Below are positions 1 to 13,319 of a DNA stretch of 13,319 bases, one piece after another (position 1 is the stretch's first letter; each line of letters opens with the position of its first letter). The notes below the pieces were generated by a model. The model had not been told where the DNA came from. It saw only the letters and a program-made list of their open reading frames with translations, and ran no database searches. The position numbers and the translations under genes are program-made. The stretch covers positions 1-13,319 of the IMG/VR virus record IMGVR_UViG_2925919700_000003; one strand, given 5' to 3'. The stretch is from a virus (taxonomy: Duplodnaviria > Heunggongvirae > Uroviricota > Caudoviricetes).

Positions 1-1053
1 TTACGGGGTAATGCCAACCGCTGCCGCCACTTTGTCGCCACTTGGCAGCGTTGCCAGAGGATTGAAACGGAGCGCCGTTTCCAGATGATCCGGTGCCAGA
101 TGTGCGTAACGCATAGTCATTTTTATATCGTGGTGTCCGAGAATTTTTTGTAAGGCCAGAATGTTTCCACCCGACATCATGAAGTGCGCCGCAAACGTAT
201 GGCGCAGAACGTGTGTGAGTTGACCGCGAGGGAGCACGATAGACGTTTTTTCCATCACGGATAAAAATTGAAAATAGCAGTCTGTGAAGAAATTGAACCC
301 ATCAAGCGCCATGATCTCTTCGTAAAGCTCTTTACTGATAGGGATGCTTCTGTTTTTCTTCCCCTTCGTTCTTACAAAGGTAATTCGGTATTTGGTCACC
401 TGTGAACGAGTAAGATTTACGGCTTCTCGCCAGCGTGCGCCTGTGCTTAAGCATATCTTAACTACCAGTGCCAGAATTGGGTCCTGACGTTTGCAATCAG
501 CCAGTAATTCAACAATCTGCTCATGGGTAAGCCATGCCATCTCTTTTTCTGCGATGGTGAATTTTCGCATGTTCTCCAGTGGGTTCGGATACGACCATTC
601 GCCCAGGCGGGATAGTTCGCTAAAAACACTACTTAGATAGCTTTGCTCCAGGTTAATGGTGACCGGGCTTGCTCCTTTCTTCCATTTCTCGCTGAAGTAG
701 ATCTCACCTGTCAGGCGTTTATCTCGATAGTGGGCAAACATTTTAGAGGTGAGATCAGTTGCAAGGGGATTGCCCAGAGCGTCAACCATCAGCAGCAATT
801 TGTCATAGACATGCTGCCCAGCAGTCAGTGATTTACCATGTAGTTTGAACCATAGCTCAACCACGTCTTTCAGTGTTCGACGATCCACTGATTCACCTAG
901 CCAGGGCTTTGCTTCGGTTTCTTCCATCGTGTGACGCTCAAAAGCCAGTGCTTCGCCTTTGGTGGCGAATTGTTTACGCACACGACGCCCACTACGTCCG
1001 GCGGGGTAACATTCGCAAAGCCATTTTCCTGTGGTGAGTTTTCGTACAGCCAT
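1..1053 (-). CDS. int: Tyrosine recombinase / phage integrase, P2-186 family
   Basis: 350 aa from ATG at 1051-1053 (minus strand), preceded by GGAGGG; the longer 376-aa ORF start is unlikely. N-terminus MAVRKLTTGKW...RKQF resembles the P2 Int N-terminus; C-terminal region has R..HxxR...Y signature (LRHTFAAHF, MTMRYAHL). Stop is the first triplet of the window. Confidence 0.9.
   Translation of the reverse strand: MAVRKLTTGKWLCECYPAGRSGRRVRKQFATKGEALAFERHTMEETEAKPWLGESVDRRTLKDVVELWFKLHGKSLTAGQHVYDKLLLMVDALGNPLATDLTSKMFAHYRDKRLTGEIYFSEKWKKGASPVTINLEQSYLSSVFSELSRLGEWSYPNPLENMRKFTIAEKEMAWLTHEQIVELLADCKRQDPILALVVKICLSTGARWREAVNLTRSQVTKYRITFVRTKGKKNRSIPISKELYEEIMALDGFNFFTDCYFQFLSVMEKTSIVLPRGQLTHVLRHTFAAHFMMSGGNILALQKILGHHDIKMTMRYAHLAPDHLETALRFNPLATLPSGDKVAAAVGITP
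19..40. repeat. Left copy of 22-bp direct repeat, putative attL core, lying inside the 3' end of int
   Basis: cgctgccgccaCtttgtcgcca at 19-40 recurs as cgctgccgccaTtttgtcgcca at 10465-10486 (21/22 identical). The two copies bracket the phage-like block: int stop at 1-3, ogr stop at 10462-10464. Confidence 0.6.
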
Positions 1054-1241
1054 AAAAAATGCCCTCCAATAGAGAGCATTTTTACTGTATGTATAACCAG
1101 TGTCAATGTATGAAATCCTGCGACCATACATCTCACTGAAGCCATAATGAAGTAGGCTATTCTTTTTGCTATGTGATCATGTAACTTTTGCGGTTAACCT
1201 GTGGCTCATTTTTATTTTAGGCGCAGATATAAAAGCAAAAG

Positions 1242-1433
1242 TTATCGTGAGTTTTTAGTACAGATTTTTTTGGATTTACTAATAGTTCCATCATTGCAAA
1301 CGAATTTGCCATCAGAGGTACAGTGAGAAACACCTCCCTTTTTCCCTGAGCAGGGATAATTTCTAGCATAGGTAGCTAGTGGGTTTAATAACAAAGAACA
1401 TGACAAAACCACAAAAAATACCTTACCAAGCAT
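1242..1433 (-). CDS. Small secreted cysteine-rich peptide (63 aa precursor), function unknown
   Basis: Strong SD (GGGAGGA) 5-6 nt upstream of ATG at 1431-1433. N-terminus [23 protein letters not shown] looks like a Sec signal peptide (possible AxA-type cleavage after TYA; an alternative VLSC lipobox is possible). Predicted mature ~40 aa part is basic with 4 Cys. Same strand as cI and int, between them; AT-rich. Confidence 0.55.
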
Positions 1434-1448
1434 AATTTCCTCCCGGTA

Positions 1449-2024
1449 CTATTTAACATACTTGACTGTTAAGCTTATAATTTTACCAATTATTTCAATG
1501 TCTTCTATCTTACATTCGAAGGCTCTGTTTCCACCCTCGACGAAGATTCTTCCACCGGGTAAACGAGTAATGTCACGGATCGTTATTTCGCCATCAATAC
1601 TTATTACCCATTTACCATCACGTATATCATCAAATTCCTTATCACAAATAAATTCAGAATTATTATCTGTGATTACAAAAAGATTCTTGAATGCCGACGG
1701 TAGAAATTCTCTATCGAAAATATAAAAACCGTCTTCACACAAGGCCCCATCAGATAATACATATTTAGCAACTTCCATAGTATTTGTATTACCTGAAGTT
1801 TGCTTTGAACCATGCCCGGTTGTGAGCCAATTAAGCGAGGTTCCTGTTTCAAGGGCGCACTGGATTACCCATTCTGCTGGGAATGAGTCACGCATGTAGC
1901 GTGTGGCGAGTGTACTTTTAGAGATTCCTAAATGATCGCACAACGCCTGTCGAGTCTTGAATCCATAAGCTTCTACCATGCGCTCTATGGCGCCTCGTCC
2001 GCCTTTCTCCAAATTCATGGTCAC
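1449..2024 (-). CDS. cI: Phage 186 CI-like immunity repressor
   Basis: 191 aa; N-terminal HTH region (EAYGF...LCDHLGISKSTLATRY...CALETGTSLNWLTTGHG) and C-terminal region (W.ISIDGEITIR.ITRLPGG...GG..FEC.IEDIE) match my recollection of 186 CI. GGAG precedes the ATG. Divergent from apl-cII. Confidence 0.85.
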   Translation of the reverse strand: MTMNLEKGGRGAIERMVEAYGFKTRQALCDHLGISKSTLATRYMRDSFPAEWVIQCALETGTSLNWLTTGHGSKQTSGNTNTMEVAKYVLSDGALCEDGFYIFDREFLPSAFKNLFVITDNNSEFICDKEFDDIRDGKWVISIDGEITIRDITRLPGGRIFVEGGNRAFECKIEDIEIIGKIISLTVKYVK

Positions 2025-2042
2025 TCCAAGTGAACTTTTATC

Positions 2043-2071
2043 TTGACGATTTCACTGTGCGATCGTATGTT
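2043..2071 (+). promoter_or_regulatory. Candidate sigma70 lytic promoter (pR-like) for apl-cII
   Basis: TTGACG (2043-2048), 17-nt spacer, TATGTT (2066-2071), about 70 nt upstream of the apl ATG. Short inverted repeats (GTGAA...TTCAC) flank the -35 and could be operator half-sites. Position fits a 186-type switch region. Confidence 0.4.
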
Positions 2072-2143
2072 TATGGTGTTCACAAAATACAAACGATCCG
2101 TATTCGTCCTGATTAATCATCATTAAACGAGGAATGTTGCATC

Positions 2144-2365
2144 ATGAGACCTAACATTTCAATCACTCTTACCACGCCTCATGTGACTATTGAACGCTAT
2201 AGCGAGCTGACAGGGCTATCCATCGATACCATCAATGATATGTTGGCTGATGGACGCCTTATCCGTCACCGTCTGCGCAAAGATAAAAAACGCGAAAAAG
2301 TGATGATCAACATAGCAGCAATGACCGTTGATGCGCTTTCAGAATGCAATCTAAACCTTAATTAG
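2144..2365 (+). CDS. apl: Apl/Cox-like excisionase and transcriptional regulator (small HTH protein)
   Basis: 73 aa, first gene of the rightward operon divergent from cI, with probable HTH ([19 protein letters not shown]); GAGGA upstream. Assignment is mainly positional. Confidence 0.7.
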
Positions 2366-2397
2366 TTCGATTCTGAAATACATCAGAGGCATTGACC

Positions 2398-2907
2398 ATG
2401 TTTGATTACCAAGTTTCCAAACATCCACATTTTGATGAAGCCTGTCGTGCATTTGCACTGCGCCACAATCTGGTGCAACTGGCAGAACGTGCAGGCATGA
2501 ATGTGCAGATTCTGCGGAACAAGCTGAACCCAGCTCAGCCTCATTTATTAACCGCACCAGAAATCTGGCTGCTTACCGATCTGACTGAAGATTCAACGCT
2601 GGTAGATGGTTTTCTGGCACAGATTCATTGTCTGCCATGTGTACCGATTAATGAGGTGGCAAAAGAGAAACTGCCACATTACGTCATGAGTGCAACCGCA
2701 GAGATCGGGCGTGTTGCTGCAGGTGCGGTGTCTGGCGATGTAAAAACCTGTGCCGGTCGTCGTGATGCTATCAGCAGCATTAACTCTGTAACACGACTGA
2801 TGGCGCTGGCGGCTGTTTCATTGCAGGCCCGTTTACAGGCTAATCCTGCGATGGCGAGTGCAGTTGATACCGTGACTGGCCTCGGTGCTTCATTTGGTTT
2901 GCTGTGA
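2398..2907 (+). CDS. cII: Phage 186 CII-like lysogeny establishment activator
   Basis: 169 aa from ATG at 2398 (ORF-track start 2392 is TTG). N-terminus [24 protein letters not shown]...[11 protein letters not shown] matches my recollection of 186 CII; follows apl as in 186. Confidence 0.8.
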
Positions 2908-2914
2908 GGTGCTT

Positions 2915-3115
2915 ATGCTGACGAAAGAACCATCATTTGCATCGCTGCTGGTTAAACAAAGCCCGGCAATGCATTACGGTCACGGCTGGATCATGGGGGA
3001 GGATGGTAAACGCTGGCATCCGTGCCGTTCACAAGATGAATTGCTGGCAGAACTATCTACGAAAAAACGGGGGAACAAATGGCTATTGAAGGCACTGCAG
3101 CAACTGTTCCATTAA
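2915..3115 (+). CDS. Small early-operon protein (66 aa), at the position of 186 fil
   Basis: ATG at 2915 with GAGGTG just upstream, starting 8 nt after the cII stop. No motif recognised. Overlaps the next ORF by 37 nt. Confidence 0.4.
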   Translation: MLTKEPSFASLLVKQSPAMHYGHGWIMGEDGKRWHPCRSQDELLAELSTKKRGNKWLLKALQQLFH

Positions 3116-3420
3116 GCCCCGGTGAACGCCTGAATGGACTTAATCACATTGCGGAGTTAAGGGCGAAAGTTTTTGGCCTGAATATTGAGTCAGAGCTTGA
3201 GCGGTTTATTAAAGATATGCGTGATCCATGGGATATCAATAATGAACAAAATAAAAGGGCACTGGCTGCCATATTCTTTATGGCAAAAATTCCAGCTGAA
3301 CGTCATAGCATCAGCATTAATGAGCTGACCACTGACGAAAAGCGGGAGTTGATTAAAGCAATGAATCATTTTCGTGCAGTGGTGAGCTTATTTCCCAGAC
3401 GGCTAACCATGCCGAATTAA
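3079..3420 (+). CDS. Hypothetical phage early protein (113 aa)
   Basis: ATG at 3079 preceded by a GGGGGA purine run; long ORF in the early operon; no recognised motif. Confidence 0.5.
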   Translation: MAIEGTAATVPLSPGERLNGLNHIAELRAKVFGLNIESELERFIKDMRDPWDINNEQNKRALAAIFFMAKIPAERHSISINELTTDEKRELIKAMNHFRAVVSLFPRRLTMPN

Positions 3421-3487
3421 CCAACTAATGAAATTAATGGCGTAAACCCGCCGGGCATCCCTTTATCTAAATTCAGGAGAATTGATT

Positions 3488-3721
3488 ATGCGTAATATTG
3501 AAACCCTCACGACTAAAACCGGACCGGATGACGCAGGGCTTAATATTTTACTGACAGAGGCTCGTCTGGAAGAACGCCGGGCAAGGGCTGAAGCAATGGC
3601 TGCTCGCCTTGATAGCCTGGCGTGTTATATCTCATCCCGCCAGCTAAACCACGTGGAAGCGGCAGAACTGCTGCGCGTGACTGCTGAAGCAATCCAGAAC
3701 GAAGCGCAGGAGATCCACTAA
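3488..3721 (+). CDS. Hypothetical phage early protein (77 aa)
   Basis: AGGAGA 7 nt upstream of ATG at 3488; its stop TAA overlaps the next gene's ATG (TAATG at 3719-3723), suggesting translational coupling. Confidence 0.55.
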   Translation: MRNIETLTTKTGPDDAGLNILLTEARLEERRARAEAMAARLDSLACYISSRQLNHVEAAELLRVTAEAIQNEAQEIH

Positions 3722-3948
3722 TGGCTGATGCAATGGATCTCGTACAGCAGCGCGTTGAAGAAGAACGCCAGCGCCATATCCGTGCAGCCCGTGCCAAATC
3801 ACCGGGCGTGTCACGCGTACTTTGCATTGAATGTGAAGCGCCAATTCCGCCAGCACGACGCCGCGCCATTCCGGGAGTGCAGCTTTGCATTACCTGTCAG
3901 GAAATCGCAGAACTGAAAGGCAAACATTACAACGGAGGTGCTGTATGA
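3721..3948 (+). CDS. TraR/DksA-family C4 zinc-finger protein
   Basis: 75 aa with CIECEAPIPPARRRAIPGVQLCITCQ (CxxC-x17-CxxC), typical of DksA/TraR-type zinc fingers found in P2-like early regions. Stop overlaps the dam start (ATGA at 3945-3948). Confidence 0.75.
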   Translation: MADAMDLVQQRVEEERQRHIRAARAKSPGVSRVLCIECEAPIPPARRRAIPGVQLCITCQEIAELKGKHYNGGAV

Positions 3949-4724
3949 GCACCATCCTGAAATGGGCGGGAAATAAAACCGCCATTATGCCAGAACTGAA
4001 AAAATACCTTCCTGCTGGCCCGCGACTGGTTGAACCTTTCGCGGGTTCCTGTGCTGTGATGATGGAAACGGATTATCCCAGCTATCTGGTTGCGGATATT
4101 AATCCTGATTTAATCAACCTCTATAAAAAGGTTGCCGCTGATTGTGAATCGTTTATATCTCGCGCCAGAGTTTTATTTGAGATCGCAAACAGGGAGGTGG
4201 CTTATTACAACATAAGGCAGGAGTTTAACTGCTCAACTGAAATTACTGATTTCATGAAAGCGGTATATTTCCTGTATCTCAATCGTCACGGTTACCGTGG
4301 TTTATGTCGCTATAACAAGAGCGGGCATTTCAACATTCCCTACGGTAATTATAAAAATCCGTATTTCCCTGAAAAAGAACTTCGCACATTTGCAGAAAAA
4401 GCCCAGCGAGCAACGTTTATCTGCGCCAGCTTTGATGAAACGCTGACGATGTTGAAGGCGGGAGATGTGGTGTATTGCGATCCGCCATATGACGGTACGT
4501 TTTCCGGTTATCACACTGATGGTTTCACTGAAGATGACCAGTATCACCTGGCATCCGTTCTTGAACATCGGTCATCAGAAGGACATCCGGTCATTGTTTC
4601 TAACAGTGACACATCCCTGATCCGTTCGCTGTATCGCAATTTTACTCACCACTATATCAAGGTAAAACGCAGCATCGGTGTGGCAGCTGGCGAGGGTACT
4701 GGAGCTGAAGGTGTACGCGGATGA
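3945..4724 (+). CDS. dam: DNA adenine (N6) methyltransferase, Dam/D12 class; C-terminus probably replaced at a deletion junction
   Basis: [11 protein letters not shown] start, PFAGS AdoMet-binding motif and DPPY catalytic motif ([10 protein letters not shown]). GGAGG 7 nt upstream. After ...[10 protein letters not shown] the last ~16 aa ([15 protein letters not shown]) do not look like a Dam C-terminus, and a tail-fibre reading frame begins at about 4678. Confidence 0.8.
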
Positions 4725-5748
4725 TCAGATGGCAAAACATCTTGCCGCACCGGACCCGCATTCACAGTATGCACAGAAAGAAAGTCCTACGTTTACCGGG
4801 ACACCCAAAGCGCCAACGCCAGCGGCGGGGAATAACACCACGCAGGTTGCGACCACAGCGTTTGTTCAGGCTGCACTGACGGCTATTATTAATGATGCGC
4901 CAGCCACGCTGGACACGCTGAAAGAAATAGCCGTAGCCATTAACAATGATCCGAAATTCAGTACCACCATTAACAATGCGCTGGCACTGAAAGCTCCGCT
5001 GTCGAGTCCGGCACTCACCGGAACGCCAACAGCCCCCACGGCGGCGCAGTCGGTCAATAATACACAGATTGCCACTACGGCTTTTGTGAAATCGGCGATT
5101 GCAGGAATGGTGGGTTCTGCACCTGCGGCACTGGATACACTGAACGAACTGGCGGCGGCACTGGGGAATGACCCGAACTTTGCCACGACAATGCTTAATG
5201 CACTGGCAGGTAAACAACCGCTGGACAATACGCTGACTAATTTGAGTGGAAAGGATGTAGCTGGTCTTCTCGCATACCTTGGTCTGGGGGAAACGATAAA
5301 TAAAGCCTCCGGAGCTATGCAGAAATCAGCTAATGGTTCTGATATTTCTGATATATCAGCCTTCCGAAATGCGCTCCGGTTAGGGGCCGCTGCAACACGA
5401 GATGTTGGAGGGGATAATGCCTCGAAGTTACTGGATTTAGACAGTTTCAGGTCAATGATGTCAGGTAATGGCTACATCTACATTCCATGCATTGCGACGA
5501 CAGGAAACCCGGTGAAACTTATGTTGCAGTGGGGAACGGTGGCAACACAAAAGGGAGCTGATGCTGGATATGCCTTACCATTTGCTTTTCCCTATGCAGG
5601 CTTGTTTGCGACCGGAAACCGTGGAACATCTGGCTACAATGCCGCGATGAATGTGCGTATTGCCAGCAGAACGCATATCAGTATTCAGAACTGGTCGCCA
5701 TCCGGAGAGGGCACCGAAGATTGTTGTTTTATCGCGCTGGGGTATTAA
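4678..5748 (+). pseudogene. Side tail fibre protein (P2 gpH / lambda Stf-like), N-terminally truncated fragment
   Basis: Open frame with no convincing start/RBS, overlapping the dam 3' end. Contains fibre repeats ([31 protein letters not shown]...NTTQ[VI]ATTAFV and TLNELAAALGNDPNFATTM.NALAGKQP). The tail-attachment N-terminal domain is absent. Confidence 0.75.
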
Positions 5749-5750
5749 GA

Positions 5751-6164
5751 ATGAATAAATTTTATAAAGGCTCTTTCTATCCGGAAGCACTAAAAGAGGT
5801 ATATATCAGCGCTGGCTCATGGCCTGAAAACGGCGTTGATGTTGATGATGAAACAATGGCAATTTACACGGGTGTCGTACCGCAGGGTAAAATGCTAGGT
5901 TCCGATAAAAATGGCAACCCTGCTTGGGTGGATATTCCGCCTCTTTCAACGGAGCAATTAGTTGCCATTATGGAGCAGAAGAAAGGGAAACTTCGTTCGA
6001 TAGCCGATGCTGAAATTAGCTGGCGACAGGATGCCGTTGATGAAGGGATAGCGACGAAAGAGGAAACTGCCGCTTTAACTGAATGGAAGAAATACCGTGT
6101 GCTGTTGATGCGTGTTGATACATCACTAGCCCCCAATATTGATTGGCCCGAAGTGCCTGTTTGA
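5751..6164 (+). CDS. Tail fibre assembly protein (Tfa / gpG-like)
   Basis: 137 aa from ATG at 5751, immediately after the fibre stop. C-terminal region (W..YR.LLMRVDTSLAPNIDWPEVP) is Tfa-like. Confidence 0.75.
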   Translation: MNKFYKGSFYPEALKEVYISAGSWPENGVDVDDETMAIYTGVVPQGKMLGSDKNGNPAWVDIPPLSTEQLVAIMEQKKGKLRSIADAEISWRQDAVDEGIATKEETAALTEWKKYRVLLMRVDTSLAPNIDWPEVPV

Positions 6165-6181
6165 GTATTTTCAATACGTAT

Positions 6182-6202
6182 TAGGGGGGAGTATCCCCCC
6201 TA
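6182..6202. terminator. Palindromic hairpin between convergent tfa and acyltransferase genes (bidirectional terminator candidate)
   Basis: tagggggga / tcccccctа perfect 9-bp inverted repeat with 3-nt loop, flanked by A/T-rich sequence on both sides; sits in the 43-bp gap between two convergent stop codons. Confidence 0.6.
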
Positions 6203-6207
6203 AAATA

Positions 6208-7347
6208 TTATGCTGTCTTGAACTGTAAAAGCACTTTACTAATTCTTCCCGACAGTAATACAGCTGGTTTATCGAAAAGACGATAGAAACCCCAGGACAC
6301 TGGTAAGCTTATGGCTACGCAAATTATTATTGATATGAGGCTTGCTGCTAATTCATCAATGCGTAAGGACAAGTAGTTAAATGATGGTATTGCTACCGCG
6401 TAAATTAAAACCATTTGTAATAAATATAATGAGAAAGATATCTTGCCTAAAAATATTGCTGGTTTTGTAGATAGTATATTGTTAACCCCATTGCTCCTCA
6501 ATGCAAATAAAACAATAAAAATACCAGAGAATAAAAACAGGGTGTACTCAGTTAAGTAATTATTAATATCTGAGAAAATGCTTGAATAGGCATATGATTG
6601 TACTTTATATCCAGCAAAGTATAATCCAAGAATTAGGATTGCGACAGATGATTTTTTTGATAGTTTAATATTTGTCTTGTATATTACGGAGCCAGACATA
6701 AAACAAGCCAATCCATAGTATAGTGCGTCGCCATCATTGTAATAGCCTAGTGATAGGAATATAAGAAATACAATCGCTGGAAAAAGTGCGGAGTTTGTTT
6801 TCTTGGATATAAATAGTAAAGCCAGAATATATGATCCGATGAGTTCAATTTTCATGGTCCATAATACCCAGTTATAGGTCTTAACACCATCCCCACCAAA
6901 AGCACCTATTAATCCTGTGAATATGGCACCATGTAAGCTGTAATCAAAGGTTCCTAGATTTGAGGCCCATTCGGAAATGCCAGTTCTATTTATATCTATG
7001 TGTGAGTATACAGCCCATCCAATCAAACAAGAGAAAAATACTGGCACCATTAATCTTATATATCTTTTTAAAAGGAATGCAAAGAAAAGAATTGAATCAA
7101 ATCGCTTAGAGAAACTTGAAGATAAAACAAAACCACTTAATACAAAGAATACGTAGACTCCAGCAGAGCCAGAGTAAAAAAAAGAGAAAGGAGAGTTCAT
7201 GATATAACTCTCAAAAGAATACCTCATGGACTCTGCTGCATGCATATATGGGTAGAAAGTATATGCAAGATGTGAGAAAAACACAGCAAGACAGGCGATG
7301 CCTCTGAGACCGTCCGCATTACTATTGTGTTCTTGAGCAACACTCAT
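6208..7347 (-). CDS. Acyltransferase family 3 integral membrane protein (O-antigen/LPS acetylase-like); cargo gene
   Basis: 380 aa from ATG at 7345-7347 (ORF-track start at 7395 is TTG). Polytopic and very hydrophobic; N-terminal GLRGIACLAVFFSHL is typical of acyltransferase-3 (OafA/Oac-like) enzymes. Clearly more AT-rich than the flanking phage and host DNA. Opposite strand to the surrounding late genes. Confidence 0.75.
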   Translation of the reverse strand: MSVAQEHNSNADGLRGIACLAVFFSHLAYTFYPYMHAAESMRYSFESYIMNSPFSFFYSGSAGVYVFFVLSGFVLSSSFSKRFDSILFFAFLLKRYIRLMVPVFFSCLIGWAVYSHIDINRTGISEWASNLGTFDYSLHGAIFTGLIGAFGGDGVKTYNWVLWTMKIELIGSYILALLFISKKTNSALFPAIVFLIFLSLGYYNDGDALYYGLACFMSGSVIYKTNIKLSKKSSVAILILGLYFAGYKVQSYAYSSIFSDINNYLTEYTLFLFSGIFIVLFALRSNGVNNILSTKPAIFLGKISFSLYLLQMVLIYAVAIPSFNYLSLRIDELAASLISIIICVAISLPVSWGFYRLFDKPAVLLSGRISKVLLQFKTA

Positions 7348-7380
7348 GAAAATTAACCTATGTTTAGAGTAATGTAGCCT

Positions 7381-7404
7381 AAAACGCCTAATCAAAAATA
7401 GGCG
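7381..7404 (-). promoter_or_regulatory. Small hairpin plus U-run in the 5' leader of the acyltransferase gene (attenuator or terminator-like)
   Basis: Minus strand reads cgccta-tttttgat-taggcg followed by tttt, about 34 nt upstream of the acyltransferase ATG. Stem is only 6 bp, so weak. Confidence 0.25.
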
Positions 7405-7418
7405 GATACCTTTGAGGC

Positions 7419-7454
7419 CATTCTAGCCTGAGGTTACATTCTAGCCTGAGGTTA
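7419..7454. repeat. Perfect 18-bp tandem direct repeat (cattctagcctgaggtta x2)
   Basis: Two identical adjacent 18-bp units at 7419-7436 and 7437-7454, in the region between the acyltransferase start and the late promoter. Confidence 0.9.
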
Positions 7455-7577
7455 ATCAAGATACCATTATGCTTTCATATCCAATCTGGCCGGAAGCGTC
7501 GCATCTGTTTCTCGCTAAGTATCAACGTAGTAAGCATCCATCAGTTCACTGATCATTCACCTTCTTAAAACTGCTAT

Positions 7578-7595
7578 TGTGCCAGCGCTGGCACA
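7578..7595 (+). promoter_or_regulatory. Ogr/Delta-type activator binding site (TGT-N12-ACA dyad) of a P2-family late promoter (P_F-like)
   Basis: tgtgccagcgctggcaca is a perfect 18-bp palindrome fitting the TGT-N12-ACA late-promoter operator; its centre is about 84 nt upstream of the sheath-like start codon at 7670, compatible with the centre lying at about -55 from the transcription start. Confidence 0.6.
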
Positions 7596-7669
7596 GGGTT
7601 AAACGCGTGCGCCGCGTGCATATCAACCAGAACATAGGCACACCCCCTGTAAACCGGAGAGATTGCCTT

Positions 7670-7732
7670 ATGGCTCAGGATTACCACCACGGGGTGCGCG
7701 TTGTTGAAGTCAACGAGGGCAACGATGAGTGA
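7670..7732 (+). pseudogene. Remnant of tail sheath gene (gpFI-like), first ~17 codons only
   Basis: ATG at 7670 encodes MAQDYHHGVRVVEVNEG..., matching my recollection of the P2 sheath N-terminus (MSDYHHGVQVLEINEG); the frame stops after 20 codons at TGA 7730-7732, overlapping the tape-measure ATG. Confidence 0.55.
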
Positions 7733-8723
7733 TAACAACCTGCGTCTGCAGGTCATTCTTAATGCGGTTGACAAGCTCACCCGCCCATTTCGATCTGCGC
7801 AGGCCAGTTCAAGAGAACTGGCTGCTGCTGTCAAAAAATCCCGCGATGCAATAAAGCAGCTTGATCAGGCCGGGAGCAGTCTGGACAGCTTCCGAAAGCT
7901 GCAGGCAGAAAATCAGAAATTAGGCGACAGGCTGAACTATGCCCGCCAGCGTGCAAATTTGCTCAGTCAGGAACTGGGAGCGATGGGGCCGCCTTCGCAA
8001 CGTCAGGTTGTTGCTCTGGGCCGTCAACGGCTGGCTGTTCAGCGCCTGGAAGAACGCCAGAAAAAGCTGCAGCAGCAGACGGCGCTTGTGCGTGCTGAAC
8101 TGTACCGGGCAGGAATTTCTGCGAAAGACGATGCGGGAGCAACTGCCCGTTTAGCCCGTGAAACATCACGTTATAACCAGGAACTTTCGAAACAGGAGGC
8201 GCGGCTGAAGCGACTGGGGGAAGCTCAGCGCAGGATGAATGCAGCGCGTGCCAGTTATGCCCGTTCGCTGGAGGTGCGTGATCGTATTGCAGGTGCCGGA
8301 GCCACCACCACGGCTGCAGGGCTGGCAATGGGCGCACCAGTGATGGCGGCAGTAAAAAGCTATACCAGCATGGAAGATGCCATGAAAGGTGTGGCAAAGC
8401 AGGTCAATGGTCTGCGTGACGATAATGGCAACCGCACTGCACGTTTTTATGAAATGCAGGATGCCATCAAGGCTGCCAGCGAACAGTTGCCGATGGAAAA
8501 CGGTGCGGTGGATTTCGCTGCACTGGTTGAAGGTGGTGCGCGCATGAACGTCGCAAACCCTGACGACAGTTGGGAAGATCAGAAACGTGACCTGCTGGCC
8601 TTCGCCAGTACGGCAGCAAAGGCGGCAACAGCCTTTGAGCTGCCAGCGGATGAACTGTCAGAAAGTCTGGGGAAAACCGACGTCCGTCCACGCAGTTTCT
8701 GGGACCGGAAAACGACATGCTGA
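7725..8723 (+). pseudogene. Tail tape measure protein (gpT-like), N-terminal ~330 aa, truncated
   Basis: ATG at 7725 (MSDNNLRLQVILNAVDKLTRPF...), GAGGG upstream; coiled-coil-like Q/R/A-rich N-terminal region. Frame ends at 8723, far too short for a P2-size tape measure, and a gpU-like frame opens at 8654. Confidence 0.7.
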
Positions 8724-9058
8724 CGCTTTCCGGTGTTCTTATGCCGGAAATAACAGGCGGCAGGCTGTCGTTGCTGGCACTGGAGCAGATGGCAGAACAG
8801 GGGAAAGCATGGCCCCTGATTGAAGGCAGCGGCACGATTTACGGCATGTATGTGATTGAGGGACTGAATCAGACTAAAACGGAGTTTTTCCGCGACGGTA
8901 TGCCGCGCCGGATTGAGTTCACCCTGTCGCTCAAACGAGTGGATGAATCCCTGTCCGATATGTTCGGTGATCTCAGTGCGCAACTGAATAATCTGCAGGA
9001 CACGGCAACGTCTGCCTTAAGCGATATCAGTAAAACGGTGGGAGGGCTGCTGTCGTGA
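8654..9058 (+). pseudogene. Tail protein gpU-like, N-terminally truncated fragment
   Basis: Frame open from 8654 (first ATG at 8717); ...FLGPENDMLTLSGVLMPEITGGRLSLLALEQMAEQGKAWPLIEGSGTIYGMYVIEG... resembles the P2 gpU central/C-terminal region. Its stop overlaps the gpD start (GTGA at 9055-9058). Confidence 0.6.
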
Positions 9059-10155
9059 ATTTCAGCTCTGAACTGCTTAACAAAGGCAACAAAACTCCCG
9101 CATTCAGCATCAGTATTGAGGGCAGGGATATCACCACTGTGCTGGATAACCGCCTGATGAGTTTGACGCTGACGGATAACCGGGGCTTTGAAGCGGACCA
9201 GCTTGATCTGGAGCTGGACGACGCTGACGGAAAAATCGTGCTGCCGCGCCGTGGTGCGGTCATTACGCTGGCGCTGGGCTGGAAGGGGCAGCCGCTTTTC
9301 CCTAAAGGGGCATTCACAGTGGACGAGATTGAACACACTGGCGCACCGGACCGCCTGACTATCCGGGCGCGAAGTGCTGATTTTCGGGAAACGCTGAATA
9401 CCCGCCGTGAAAAATCGTGGCATAAGACCACCGTCGGGGAAGTGGTGAAGGAAATAGCCGCGCGGCACAAGCTGAAGATGGCACTGGGTAAAGACCTGTC
9501 AGATAAACCCGTGGAGCATATAGACCAGACTAATGAGAGTGACGGCAGTTTTCTGATGCGGCTGGCGCGACAGTACGGTGCCATCGCGTCGGTGAAAAAT
9601 GGCAATCTGTTATTCATCCGGCAGGGGCAGGGCAAAAGCGCCACTGGTAAACCTCTGCCAGTGATCACTATCACACGCAAGGACGGCGACAGTCACCGAT
9701 TTACCCTGGCAGATCGCGGAGCCTACACGGGCGTAATTGCCAGCTGGTTGCATACCCGCGAACCTGCGAAGAAAGAAAGCACCACGGTGAAGCGTAAGCG
9801 CAGAACTAAGAAGCAGAAGAAAGAGCCAGAAGCGAAGCAGGGCGATTACCTGGTGGGTACGGATGAAAACGTGCTGGTACTTAATCGCACTTATGCCAAC
9901 CGGAGCAACGCCGAACGAGCGGCGAAAATGCAGTGGGAACGCCTGCAACGCGGCGTTGCGTCATTTTCGCTACAACTGGCAGAAGGGCGGGCAGATCTCT
10001 ACACGGAAATGCCAGTGAAAGTCAGTGGCTTTAAACAGCCGATAGATGATGCGGAATGGACCATTACGACTCTGACGCATACCGTCAGTCCGGATAACGG
10101 TTTTACGACCAGTCTGGAGCTTGAAGTGAGGATTGATGATTTCGAAATGGAATGA
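9055..10155 (+). CDS. D: Tail protein gpD-like (late tail gene D)
   Basis: 366 aa from GTG at 9055 with GGGAGGG about 8 nt upstream; sits between U and ogr as in P2; similar in size to P2 gpD as I remember it. Confidence 0.75.
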   Translation: MNFSSELLNKGNKTPAFSISIEGRDITTVLDNRLMSLTLTDNRGFEADQLDLELDDADGKIVLPRRGAVITLALGWKGQPLFPKGAFTVDEIEHTGAPDRLTIRARSADFRETLNTRREKSWHKTTVGEVVKEIAARHKLKMALGKDLSDKPVEHIDQTNESDGSFLMRLARQYGAIASVKNGNLLFIRQGQGKSATGKPLPVITITRKDGDSHRFTLADRGAYTGVIASWLHTREPAKKESTTVKRKRRTKKQKKEPEAKQGDYLVGTDENVLVLNRTYANRSNAERAAKMQWERLQRGVASFSLQLAEGRADLYTEMPVKVSGFKQPIDDAEWTITTLTHTVSPDNGFTTSLELEVRIDDFEME

Positions 10156-10245
10156 TTCTTCGCAATAGAGAACTTTTAAGTTTGCAAAATGGAATAATGC
10201 GATATCATTATTGTGAATTTAGCAAAAATGGGGAGAGCTCGAAAA

Positions 10246-10464
10246 ATGATGATTTGCCCACTGTGTGGAAGTACCGCCCATACTCGCAGCAGTTTTCAGG
10301 TATCTTCATTGACCAAAGAGCGTTACAACCAGTGCCAGAACATTAACTGCAGCCATACTTTTGTTACCCATGAAACTTTTGTTCGTTCGATTGCTACGCC
10401 AAAAGAGTCAAATCCGGTTCAGCCGCATCCAATGAAATCAGGACAGGTGGCGCTCTCTCTTTGA
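10246..10464 (+). CDS. ogr: Ogr/Delta-family zinc-finger late-gene transcriptional activator
   Basis: 72 aa from ATG at 10246 with GGGGAGAG 8 nt upstream. MMICPLCGSTAHTRSS...KERYNQCQNINCSHTF has the Cx2C-x22-Cx4C arrangement and the KERYxQCQN motif characteristic of P2 Ogr / 186 B. Confidence 0.9.
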   Translation: MMICPLCGSTAHTRSSFQVSSLTKERYNQCQNINCSHTFVTHETFVRSIATPKESNPVQPHPMKSGQVALSL

Positions 10465-10486
10465 CGCTGCCGCCATTTTGTCGCCA
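10465..10486. repeat. Right copy of 22-bp direct repeat, putative attR core
   Basis: cgctgccgccattttgtcgcca immediately follows the ogr stop codon; 21/22 identical to 19-40. Confidence 0.6.
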
Positions 10487-10543
10487 TCGTTAAAAAACAG
10501 TGCTTCTAACATCATGATTTTAAACAGCATAAATTTCAGGCAA

Positions 10544-10587
10544 CAAAAAACCCATCAACCTTGAACCGAAATGGCGGGGTTGATGGG
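10544..10587 (-). terminator. Rho-independent terminator downstream of ybjL
   Basis: 10-bp perfect stem cccatcaacc / ggttgatggg (10551-10560 and 10578-10587) with 17-nt loop; on the minus strand it is followed by TTTTTTG; about 110 nt past the ybjL stop. Confidence 0.55.
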
Positions 10588-10699
10588 CTCCACAAAATGG
10601 GGACATCAAAGAAAAGCAGTGGCATTAATTAAGACTGATGCCCTGCGGAAAAGTTCTGCGGTTGTGCAAAAAAATTTCATTTTCAGGGCAACTTCAGTT

Positions 10700-12385
10700 T
10701 TATCCTAATCCTGGCCATACCATGACGATGATTGTCCCTGCCAGCGTCAGCAGGACGTTGGCGATTGCGTAGGTGCCCGCATAGCCCAGCGCAGGGATGT
10801 TACTGCGAGCTGTATCACTGATGATCTCCATTGCCGGCGCGCAGGTGCGTGCGCCCATCATTGCGCCGAACAACAGTGCGCGGTTCATTCGCAATACATA
10901 AGCACCGAACAAGAAACAGATAACCACGGGCACAAGACTGACAATTAATCCGGCAATCAACATCTGACCGCCAATCGCGCCCAGGCCGTTATTAATACCG
11001 CTACCGGCGCTCAGACCAACGCCTGCCATAAACACCATCAAGCCGAACTCTTTCACCATGCTTAATGCACCTTGCGGAATGTAACCGAAGGTCGGGTGGT
11101 TAGCACGCATAAAGCCCAGCATAATTCCGGCGAATAACAACCCGGCAGCGTTCCCCATGCCGAAACTGAATGTGCTGAACTGGAAGGTGATCATCCCGAT
11201 CATCAGCCCAATAACAAAGAAGGCGCAAAATGCCAGCAGGTCAGTGACCTGGCTGTGAATCGAGATAAAGCCGATGCGATCGGCGATGGTTTTTACGCGA
11301 CGGGCATCACCGCTGACTTGTAAAACGTCACCTTTGTTAAGCACGACGTTGTCATCTATCGGCATCTCAATCTGGCTACGAATGACGCGGTTAAGGAAGC
11401 AACCGTGATCGGTCAACTTCAGTTGTGCGAGACGTTTACCTACAGCGTTATGGTTTTTAACGACCACTTCTTCAGTGACGATACGCATGTCGAGAAGGTC
11501 ACGATCGAAAACTTCTTTACCGTTACGGAAGCTGGGATCGAGTCGGGCATGGGCGTCGGGATAGCCTACCAACGCTATTTCATCGCCCATTTGTAGCACG
11601 GCATCACCGTCTGGATTTGCCAGAATCCCGTTACGTCGAATACGTTCAATGTAGCAGCCGGTTTGTCGATAAATACCCAGTTCACGCAGATTTTTGCCGT
11701 CGGTCCAGGCCACCAGCTCCGGGCCGACGCGATAGGCGCGGATCACCGGTAAATAAACCTTACGGTTGGCATCAGTGTCCAGGCCACGTTCGCGGGCGAT
11801 TTGCTGGGCGCTGGTCTGTAAGTCCTGATGCTGCAATTTCGGCAAGTAACGCGCACCAACAATCAAACTCACCAGACCGATTAAATAGGTTAAGGCATAC
11901 CCGAGGCTCAGATTATCCAGTGCCAGTGAGAGCTGCCTGCTTTCCATGCCGGAATGACGCAGTGTATCGCCAGCACCGACCAGAACCGGTGTCGACGTCA
12001 TAGAGCCTGCTAACATACCGGCCGTCAGGCCAATATCCCAGCCAAACAGCTTACCTAACCCTAAGGCGATCACCAGCGCACTGCCAACCATCACCAGTGC
12101 TAACATTAGGTAATTTTTCCCATCGCGAAAAAAAATGGAAAAAAAGTTCGGTCCGGCTTCGACCCCGACGCAGAAAATAAACAGCATAAAGCCAAGATTA
12201 AGCGCATCGGTGTTAATGCTGAAATGTTGTTGGCCTAATAACAGCGATACGACTAAAACGCCAATGGAATTACCCAGTTGGATCGAACCAAGTCGTAACT
12301 TTCCGAGACATAGCCCAAGCGCGAGGACCACAAATAATAACAGAATGTAATTCCCATTTAACAATTCGGCGACGTTTATATTCAC
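10700..12385 (-). CDS. ybjL: Putative transport protein YbjL (AAE-family transporter with central TrkA-C/RCK-type domains)
   Basis: 561-aa polytopic membrane protein; sequence ([24 protein letters not shown]...) recognised as E. coli YbjL. GTG start in the ORF track, no clear SD. Confidence 0.9.
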
Positions 12386-12654
12386 GGAGGCTAACTTCTT
12401 GTTTACTAGTAAGCTGTTGAAAGAAATGGTAATTTACGATAATGTTTTTTACCAGAATTCAGGGCGCAGATTCATTCAGCGCACCTAAACGATAGTAAAG
12501 TAACAATATATTTTACTAGTGTAATCACATTAGGTATCAACGGCTATATGAATTGCGTTGGCCTATATTAGCATGGAATGCGAAGCGGCTTTATCTTACT
12601 GAACGCCACACTGGCGAAAAATGTGTTCGATAGACGCAGTGTCAGGAGGAACGA

Positions 12655-13032
12655 GTGAAACATAAACAACGTTGGGCGGGGGCAATCTGCTGTTTTGTCC
12701 TCTTCATTGTGGTGTGCCTTTTTCTGGCGACGCACATGAAAGGCGCTTTTCGGGCTGCCGGGCATCCTGAAATCGGCTTGCTATTTTTCATTCTTCCTGG
12801 AGCAGTCGCCAGCTTCTTTTCACAGCGTAGAGAAGTCCTGAAACCTCTGTTTGGCGCAATGCTGGCGGCACCCTGTTCGATGCTCATTATGCGGCTGTTT
12901 TTTTCACCGACGCGCTCATTCTGGCAAGAGCTGGCATGGTTACTAAGCGCGGTGTTCTGGTGTGCGCTGGGGGCACTGTGTTTCTTATTTATCAGTAGTT
13001 TGTTTAAACCACAGCACAGAAAAAATCAGTAA
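12655..13032 (+). CDS. ybjM: Inner membrane protein YbjM
   Basis: 125 aa, hydrophobic, GTG start with AGGAGGA upstream; position between ybjL and grxA matches the E. coli K-12 gene order. Confidence 0.8.
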   Translation: MKHKQRWAGAICCFVLFIVVCLFLATHMKGAFRAAGHPEIGLLFFILPGAVASFFSQRREVLKPLFGAMLAAPCSMLIMRLFFSPTRSFWQELAWLLSAVFWCALGALCFLFISSLFKPQHRKNQ

Positions 13033-13052
13033 AGCCCTCAACGCGAGGGCTT
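13021..13052 (-). terminator. Rho-independent terminator of grxA (hairpin shared with convergent ybjM)
   Basis: 8-bp stem aagccctc / gagggctt with 5-nt loop (13032-13052); on the minus strand followed by a T-run (complement of aaaaa at 13021-13025); lies just past the grxA stop. Confidence 0.6.
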
Positions 13053-13061
13053 GTCAGACGA

Positions 13062-13319
13062 TCAGGCGTCCAGATTTTCTTTCACCCATGCAGCAAAATC
13101 GGTATAGCCGCCGATATGTTGCTGATCGACAAAAATCTGCGGCACGGTTTCTACGGGTTTACCTGCCTTTTGTTGTAGATCTTCTTTAGTGATCCCTTCC
13201 GCACGAATATCTACATACTGATACTGAAAATCATCGCGTTCATTGCTCAATTTCTCAGCCAGATCTTTTGCACGCACACAGTAAGGGCAACCCGAACGAC
13301 CAAAAATAACGGTTTGCAT
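13062..13319 (-). CDS. grxA: Glutaredoxin 1
   Basis: 85 aa, MQTVIFGRSGCPYCVRAKDLAEKL... with the CPYC active site; recognised as E. coli Grx1. The start codon is the last triplet of the window. Confidence 0.95.
   Translation of the reverse strand: MQTVIFGRSGCPYCVRAKDLAEKLSNERDDFQYQYVDIRAEGITKEDLQQKAGKPVETVPQIFVDQQHIGGYTDFAAWVKENLDA

Follow-up and report, generated by a model that had tools for sequence, protein, structure and literature searches.

The paired 22-bp repeats of a 186/Fels-2-like prophage remnant are probably integrase arm sites, and a 14-bp core at the 3′ end of rybB marks its boundaries

The window analysed here, the whole stretch of 13,319 nt that makes up positions 1 to 13,319 of the IMG/VR virus record IMGVR_UViG_2925919700_000003 (Caudoviricetes), carries a prophage remnant of the 186/Fels-2 type, and a 22-base repeat, CGCTGCCGCCAYTTTGTCGCCA, is found in it in two copies on the same strand (19-40 and 10465-10486). 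We interpret these 22-mers, with a probability of about 0.9, as the P-arm and P′-arm integrase sites in the attP of a temperate phage of the 186/Fels-2 type, with the 3′ end of the small RNA (sRNA) gene rybB as its target, where the sequence held in common by host and prophage is a 14-bp core, AACAAAAAACCCAT, lying outside both repeats.

Copy A (CGCTGCCGCCACTTTGTCGCCA, 19-40) and copy B (CGCTGCCGCCATTTTGTCGCCA, 10465-10486) differ by a single mismatch, C to T at position 12, and two matches to the 22-mer were obtained in none of 200 dinucleotide-preserving shuffles of the window, even with 3 mismatches allowed. Copy A is situated 16 nt inside the 3′ end of int, while copy B starts at the base directly 3′ of the ogr stop codon. 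A preliminary description of this DNA had reported the repeat coordinates, the one mismatch and the placement relative to int and ogr exactly as they stand here, and had taken the repeats for the attL and attR cores of a ~10.4-kb remnant next to ybjL.

The boundaries of the element were determined by comparing the window with the empty locus of Escherichia coli K-12 (L003), the lysogen E. coli MB06234 (L001) and 5,426 complete E. coli genomes. Searching the latter with the whole window revealed many prophages of the same type between rcdA (ybjK) and ybjL, and MB06234, which is 99.8% identical to the window overall and 100% identical over 1-4698, provided the left flank that falls outside the window. 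In the unoccupied K-12 locus, rybB sits between rcdA and ybjL, and the K-12 attB (tagataAACAAAAAACCCATcaacc), the MB06234 attL (tagatAACAAAAAACCCATttatgtaaatggg) and the window attR (ttcaggcAACAAAAAACCCATcaacc) have in common only the 14-bp core. Its one occurrence in the window forms the last 14 nt of rybB (Table 1), and its left counterpart was located at 5913-5926 of L001, namely 75-88 bp beyond window position 1, which coincides with the int stop codon. The ogr-to-rybB junction (attR) was present in 1,104 of the 5,426 genomes, and in the remainder homology begins at window position 10542, or at 10529 via partial similarity; the rcdA-to-int junction (attL) was present in 1,058, and in the remainder homology ends at L001 5926, the final core base. 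Junctions at the rybB site therefore occur in ~20% of complete E. coli genomes. The 22-mer was not found in the K-12 rcdA-ybjL locus at up to 3 mismatches, where the 14-bp core is present once, so that the 22-mers lie neither at a host/prophage junction nor in the unoccupied attB, as att cores would. The prophage is inserted at the 3′ end of rybB and has left the sRNA gene intact.

The left core lies outside the window, and the element measures ~10.63 kb rather than the 10.4 kb first given, and the inserted DNA amounts to about 10,629 bp if the left flank resembles that of MB06234. To the left of the window, the rcdA stop codon, ~16 nt, the core AACAAAAAACCCAT and then TTATGTAAATGGGTT would be expected, with the int stop codon 75 nt further. 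The earlier designation of a remnant near ybjL holds, but its size has to be corrected and its immediate neighbour is rybB. MB06233, a sister isolate of MB06234, has an empty site.

Both 22-mers are phage DNA. By joining the ogr-to-core segment of the window to the core-to-int segment of L001, an attP of 1,017 bp was reconstructed, which matched Klebsiella phage KP12 over 100% of the 1,017 bp at 98% identity in a single uninterrupted match, and in this free phage genome ogr, 22-mer, core, 22-mer and int are contiguous. In Klebsiella phage 4LV2017, which was deposited in prophage orientation, the annotated attL and attR are CAGGCAACAAAAAACCCAT, which is the same core, and the 22-mers are found inside them.

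Each 22-mer consists of a head-to-tail pair of 11-bp units, TGYCGCCAYTT, and this unit resembles the arm-type sites of a known class of integrases, for which the consensus is tgccGCCActt in the 186 type and tgTGGaCa in the P2 type (Nilsson et al., PMC3448106). The GenBank record of coliphage 186 likewise gives an arm-type consensus of YAYCGCCAYTY, with 3 sites to the left and 2 to the right of attP. In the window, 22-32 matches tgccGCCActt exactly, 33-43 and 10468-10478 match it at 10 of 11 positions, and 10479-10489 is a weaker match. The relaxed motif YRYCGCCAYTY occurs 3 times in the 13.3-kb window, always inside the two 22-mers, against 0.25 occurrences expected, and 0 of 200 shuffles reached 3. 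Tandem pairs phased by 11 bp, with one orientation on both arms, are also found in 186 and in Fels-2, the core of which is the 3′ end of ssrA.

The geometry of the site is conserved as well. The distances from arm to core, 55 nt for the P arm and 92 nt for the P′ arm, are the same in the window/MB06234, KP12, 4LV2017 and Escherichia phage ESSI2_ev129, and the last of these has the same core, an int region of only ~76% nucleotide identity and a different gene in place of ogr beside attP. The attP of ESSI2_ev129 aligned to the reconstruction without gaps over 229 nt, with identities of 14/14 in the core, 21/22 in the P′ pair, 17/22 in the P pair, 28/55 (51%) in the P spacer and 60/92 (65%) in the P′ spacer; the ungapped alignment thus indicates that the 55- and 92-nt distances are kept while the spacer DNA drifts. 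RcdA searches led to four more lysogens (L012, L015, L046, L055), from other Escherichia species, an Enterobacteriaceae isolate and Klebsiella michiganensis, and in each of them the distance from the core to the P′ 22-mer is again exactly 92 nt. In a separate case, Lelliottia sp. WAP21 (L089, 2050-2170), the core-proximal part of the P′ spacer is the same, the integrase 3′ end is different and no GCCGCCA pair stands 92 nt from the core; its recombination module may be a mosaic.

The integrase encoded next to the P′ arm also belongs to the type for which these arm sites are described. Its identity is 56% with 186 Int, 35% with P2 Int and 99% with the Int of 4LV2017, and the catalytic residues R207, H281, R284, H307 and Y316 are invariant in the alignment. 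Three N-terminal positions have been proposed to discriminate 186-type from P2-type arm recognition (PMC3448106), and at these W11, E14 and Y16 align with W, E and Y of 186, where P2 has Y, D and R. Sites resembling the consensus of the integration host factor (IHF) were predicted, as consensus matches only, at conserved positions in both spacers, two of them in the P′ spacer, and 186 and P2 have footprinted IHF sites at the equivalent position.

Several points weigh against the arm-site assignment. Three of the 4 half-sites depart from the consensus of the 186 record at position 2 alone (G for A), and the fourth, TGTCGCCATCG, departs at its last two positions as well; the arm sites of 186 are themselves labelled ‘predicted’ in their GenBank record, and Int binding at the sites predicted here is likewise inferred. 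Cox/Apl binding sites were not identified in the core-to-P′ spacer, and a search for repeats common to this spacer and the cI-apl switch region yielded none that was convincing. In addition, attL lies outside the window, and its presence in the source genome is deduced from the relative that is 100% identical over 1-4698.

The core has a second role in sequence terms, as AACAAAAAACCCAT corresponds to the 3′ stem half plus U-tract of the rybB terminator, and the rybB terminator hairpin folds intact at attR. Downstream of int, a minus-strand terminator, AACCCATTTACATAAATGGGTTTTTTGTT, was recognized as a hairpin plus T-tract, the 3′ half of which is the core. P2 and Fels-2 have a further terminator, placed between ogr and the P arm, but a search for one at that place here detected none. 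The phage sequence left of the core (window 10529-10541, ATAAATTTCAGGC) is the same, or almost the same, as the attB flank downstream of rcdA in E. albertii, E. ruysiae, Citrobacter amalonaticus and Klebsiella pneumoniae (L017, L016, L023, L028), while the E. coli attB flank differs there (ATAAGTTTTAGAT), and so attP and attB are perfectly identical over 19-25 bp in those hosts and over no more than 14 bp in E. coli, which would be either a secondary host or one with a drifted attB flank.

A mechanism can be proposed on the P2, 186 and lambda paradigm, from which its steps (Int and IHF binding, strand exchange) are inferred. A heterobivalent Int would bind the arm pairs with its N-terminal domain and AACAAAAAACCCAT with its core-binding and catalytic domains, and the predicted IHF bends in the spacers would let one Int bridge arm and core. 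Strand exchange would take place within AACAAAAAACCCAT, and attP would be split at the core on integration. The two arms would then lie at the inner edges of the att sites, with ogr as the neighbour of the P arm at attR and the 3′ end of int overlapped by the P′ arm at attL, which is where the 22-mers were seen. The core serves as the 3′ half of both the terminator of the phage int operon and the host rybB terminator; both are rebuilt on integration, and so the int and rybB transcripts would stay terminated.

Other explanations of the repeats were weighed against the same data. As direct repeats in one orientation near the int and ogr ends that flank attP in P2/186 genomes, the 22-mers could be taken, as in the preliminary description, for attL/attR cores, namely a duplicated crossover sequence delimiting the prophage. 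This is scarcely tenable, because besides the absence of the 22-mer from the empty K-12 locus, host homology in thousands of genomes ends at AACAAAAAACCCAT, 55 and 92 nt beyond the 22-mers, and free phage genomes hold both copies, with the real core between them; MB06234 and 4LV2017 moreover show the same C/T difference between the copies, though ESSI2_ev129 and KP12 do not. The uninterrupted locus of K-12 and of >4,300 other complete E. coli genomes, a comparison that the preliminary description had itself named as able to refute its reading, gives boundaries different from those it had drawn. Binding of another phage protein, a Cox/Apl-like excisionase or CI, instead of Int is very improbable too: the Cox/Apl sites of P2 and 186 are likewise in attP near the int end, but they are one-sided, between core and P′ arm, whereas the 22-mers stand on both sides; the same motif is found in 186 and Fels-2 although the Cox/Apl-like protein encoded here resembles 186 Apl weakly; and the arm motif does not recur in the cI-apl switch region (2019-2143).

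The P-arm copy has a partial likeness in the host, which raises the reading that it is a relic of captured DNA from the rcdA 3′ end and without a function of its own. The rcdA stretch TGACGCTGCATTTTGTCACC (L003 3882-3901) aligns with window 10462-10485 at 19 of 20 positions with one 4-nt gap, a score that 1 of 2,000 shuffles equalled; yet this stretch is a coding segment, GMTLHFVTD, conserved in all genera examined, it does not have the CGCCA centre of both half-sites, and the presence of the same arm motif in 186 and Fels-2, which integrate elsewhere, suggests that the motif predates use of the rybB site. Local alignments compared with shuffles gave no other similarity between the arm spacers and the attB flanks. 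We consider the capture of host DNA very improbable as well, and the similarity of rcdA to the P arm, whether read as captured DNA or as a pseudo-arm site of the host, is probably coincidental. As a side observation, RcdA-encoding contigs were met under two non-enterobacterial labels, Corallococcus carmarthensis (L037) and Vagococcus sp. (L052), one a 428-bp contig 99% identical to E. coli rcdA and the other a 161-kb contig; these labels are likely to reflect contamination or mislabelling in public assemblies.

With the 22-mers assigned to the integrase arms and the boundaries to the core, the element, judged from its gene content, is a ~10.6-kb 186/Fels-2-like prophage remnant, replication- and particle-defective (Table 1). 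The gene order, which opens with int, cI, cox/apl and cII and closes with D and ogr, and the P2-family domains recognized in Pfam and PHROG bear out the earlier assignment to a P2/186-family remnant that has int and ogr at its two ends, and int, the Cox/Apl-like gene and cI do persist as intact open reading frames (ORFs), as had been stated. The window is collinear with the full-length 33.5-kb 4LV2017 except for three deletions and mosaic patches. The deletions total ~22 kb relative to this full-length relative, so most of the phage has indeed been lost, and their junctions, which were also mapped against MB06234, carry 4-8 bp overlaps versus 4LV2017, i.e. they are flanked by microhomology. 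Junction 1 removed gpA, the DinI/Tum-like gene and the portal, terminase, capsid, lysis, tail completion and baseplate genes. Junction 2 was mapped by the correspondence of window 7604-7721 to 4LV2017 26137-26254 and of window 7714-8679 to 4LV2017 28373-29338. With Q-P-O-N-M-L, gpA, the DinI/Tum-like gene, lysis, baseplate, FI/FII/E and most of T deleted, the element does not qualify as a complete inducible phage.

Table 1. Positions of the attachment-site elements, prophage genes, deletion junctions and host genes in the window
Feature	Window positions	Strand	Evidence or remark
int, 186-type tyrosine integrase, 350 aa, intact ORF	1-1053	-	Pfam Int_N 3e-32, Phage_integrase 7e-22
P′ arm (copy A, 19-40)	19-43	+	putative arm-type Int sites TGCCGCCACTT 22-32, TGTCGCCACTT 33-43
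phrog_6000, a conserved small ORF of phages, 63 aa, between int and cI	1242-1433	-	E = 3e-34; hypothetical in MB06234
cI, 186-type immunity repressor, intact ORF	1449-2018	-	Pfam Phage_CI_repr 3e-33, Phage_CI_C 3e-27
Cox/Apl-like excisionase and repressor, 73 aa, intact	2144-2365	+	phrog_575, E = 6e-31; weakly similar to 186 Apl
Early operon	2398-3948	+	Pfam matches
cII	2398-2907	+	early operon
fil	2915-3115	+	early operon
DUF5347	3079-3420	+	early operon
DUF2732	3488-3721	+	early operon
TraR/DksA zinc-finger gene	3721-3948	+	early operon
Dam-type adenine methylase gene, 3′ end replaced at junction 1	3945-4724	+	Pfam MethyltransfD12 3e-75, profile 1-253 of 253
Deletion junction 1, dam to tail-fibre H	4694-4698		4-5 bp microhomology; ~17.9 kb lost vs 4LV2017; BLAST segments overlap
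Tail-fibre (gpH-like) C-terminal fragment and following assembly gene	4699-6164	+	phrog_454 tail fibre 3e-85; Pfam Gp53-like_C
Tail-fibre assembly gene, intact ORF	5721-6164	+	Caudo_TAP 2e-37
Acyltransferase-3 family cargo gene (moron), likely start near 7347	6208-7395	-	Pfam Acyl_transf_3 9e-26; acyltransferase family protein in MB06234
Deletion junction 2, upstream of FI to T	7714-7721		FI, FII, E, E′ lost, ~2.1 kb
Tape-measure gene (gpT), 5′ fragment	7725-8679	+	phrog_28 5e-76
Deletion junction 3, T to U	8675-8679		rest of gpT and gpU 5′ end lost, ~2.2 kb; Pfam GpU profile 45-120 only
gpU, 3′ fragment	8680-9058	+	Pfam Phage_P2_GpU
gpD, intact	9055-10155	+	Pfam Phage_GPD
ogr/B-like late-gene activator of the Ogr/Delta zinc-finger type, intact ORF	10246-10464	+	Pfam Ogr_Delta 1e-21
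P arm (copy B, 10465-10486)	10465-10489	+	putative arm-type Int sites TGCCGCCATTT 10468-10478, TGTCGCCATCG 10479-10489
IHF-consensus-like site, predicted	10507-10519	-	between P arm and core; 12/13 matches, 13/13 at same position in ESSI2_ev129
attR common core AACAAAAAACCCAT	10542-10555		prophage right boundary, last 14 nt of rybB; one occurrence in window
rybB sRNA gene, intact, integration target	10542-10620	-	Rfam RF00110, 105.3 bits, model positions 1-79 of 79
ybjL	10700-12385	-	nearby host gene

An identical remnant was not found among the 5,426 complete E. coli genomes, the best match being MB06234. The two share junction 2, the H/G/acyltransferase segment and the flanks adjacent to junction 1, while the T-D deletion differs and gpA through portal is retained in MB06234. 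When L001 10699-17349 and 21319-22057 were compared with the window, deletions private to each were also recognized, with dam 3′ through terminase lost in the window and T 3′ through D 5′ lost in MB06234. This pattern indicates that one already-defective ancestor has decayed independently and stepwise in the two lineages.

Some of the retained genes may still have functions. Junction 1 took only the last ~100 nt of the dam-type gene, keeping the full MethyltransfD12 domain with a new C-terminal tail, and an orphan adenine methylase may still be made. The acyltransferase gene, flanked by the tail-fibre assembly gene and the FI-upstream remnant, runs on the opposite strand and has survived all three deletions; it resembles lysogenic-conversion cargo, possibly for acylation of O-antigen or a surface sugar. 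The intergenic switch region between cI and apl includes a near-perfect 18-bp inverted repeat at 2061-2098, GATCGTATGTTTATGGTG / CACAAAATACAAACGATC, a candidate CI operator.

The preliminary description had raised the possibility of an element that can still be excised and gives immunity. Immunity mediated by CI is plausible. In mechanistic terms excision is possible as well, since int and cox/apl are present and the nearest relative has both att sites, but the loss of gpA and of the tum-like (DinI-family) antirepressor gene weakens the case for it. In 186 the Tum antirepressor mediates SOS induction. Replication has gone with gpA, and any excised circle would simply be lost. The remnant might alternatively be seen as a maintained mini-element, equipped with cI immunity, a Dam-type methylase domain, acyltransferase cargo, intact att sites, int and cox/apl. 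If true, such an element could still excise and be lost or re-captured, with the rcdA pseudo-arm similarity aiding site capture; the intact ORFs are its specific support, and we hold it to be highly doubtful.

For the annotation of prophages, these results mean that direct repeats close to the ends of a prophage need not be att cores. At 2 × 11 bp, the arm sites of P2/186-type phages make a longer and more noticeable repeat than the true core does (14 bp here), and when the 22-mers are taken as boundaries both ends are misplaced by 55-92 bp and the rybB sRNA target is hidden. RybB is a sigma-E-dependent regulator, and the correct boundaries show its gene intact with a rebuilt terminator, next to a remnant without replication and induction functions.

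Among known systems, the attP of coliphage 186 is alike in having YAYCGCCAYTY/tgccGCCActt motifs in 11-bp tandem pairs on both sides of the core and in one orientation, IHF sites between arms and core (candidates here), the same Int discriminator residues and an early region of the cI/apl/cII/fil type. It differs in its core, which is the 36-bp 3′ end of tRNA-Ile (target, the ileY tRNA) instead of the rybB terminator, in having three P-arm sites versus the two found here, in the separation of int from attP by orf69, whereas the P′ pair here is inside the int coding sequence, and in Apl, to which the Cox/Apl-like protein is weakly similar. Phage P2 has the same attP order of ogr, P arm, IHF, core, (Cox) and P′ arm overlapping the int 3′ end, and each of its footprinted arms is a tandem pair of ~11-bp sites, ~22-27 bp overall. 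The P2 arm motif is tgTGGaCa, however, its P2-type Int is 35% identical to the one here and has Y, D and R at the discriminators, its core is a 27-bp intergenic sequence, and its spacings are 35 and 86 nt versus 55 and 92 nt here.

Integration at rybB and the arm-site consensus are already known, and the explanation given here is established biology. P2-like ‘Felsduovirus’ prophages at rybB were described in E. coli as hotspot #29 in 109 genomes (Hochhauser et al. 2023, PMC10121019), and a rybB island, Kpn38RybB, in Klebsiella (Hudson et al. 2014, PMC4048246). The PhiECO1 site (Nilsson et al. 2011) is at a similar chromosomal position and may be the same site; Bobay et al. 2013 (PMC3603311) has been quoted as a source for integration at rybB, but the gene goes unnamed in the main text of that paper. 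Compared with the rybB integrators (hotspot #29, Kpn38RybB, 4LV2017 and KP12), the copy in the window differs as a 10.6-kb remnant with three deletions, the exact pattern of which is in no complete genome of the collection, and agrees with them in the integrase (99% identical to that of 4LV2017), the core, the arms and the site between rcdA and rybB-ybjL.

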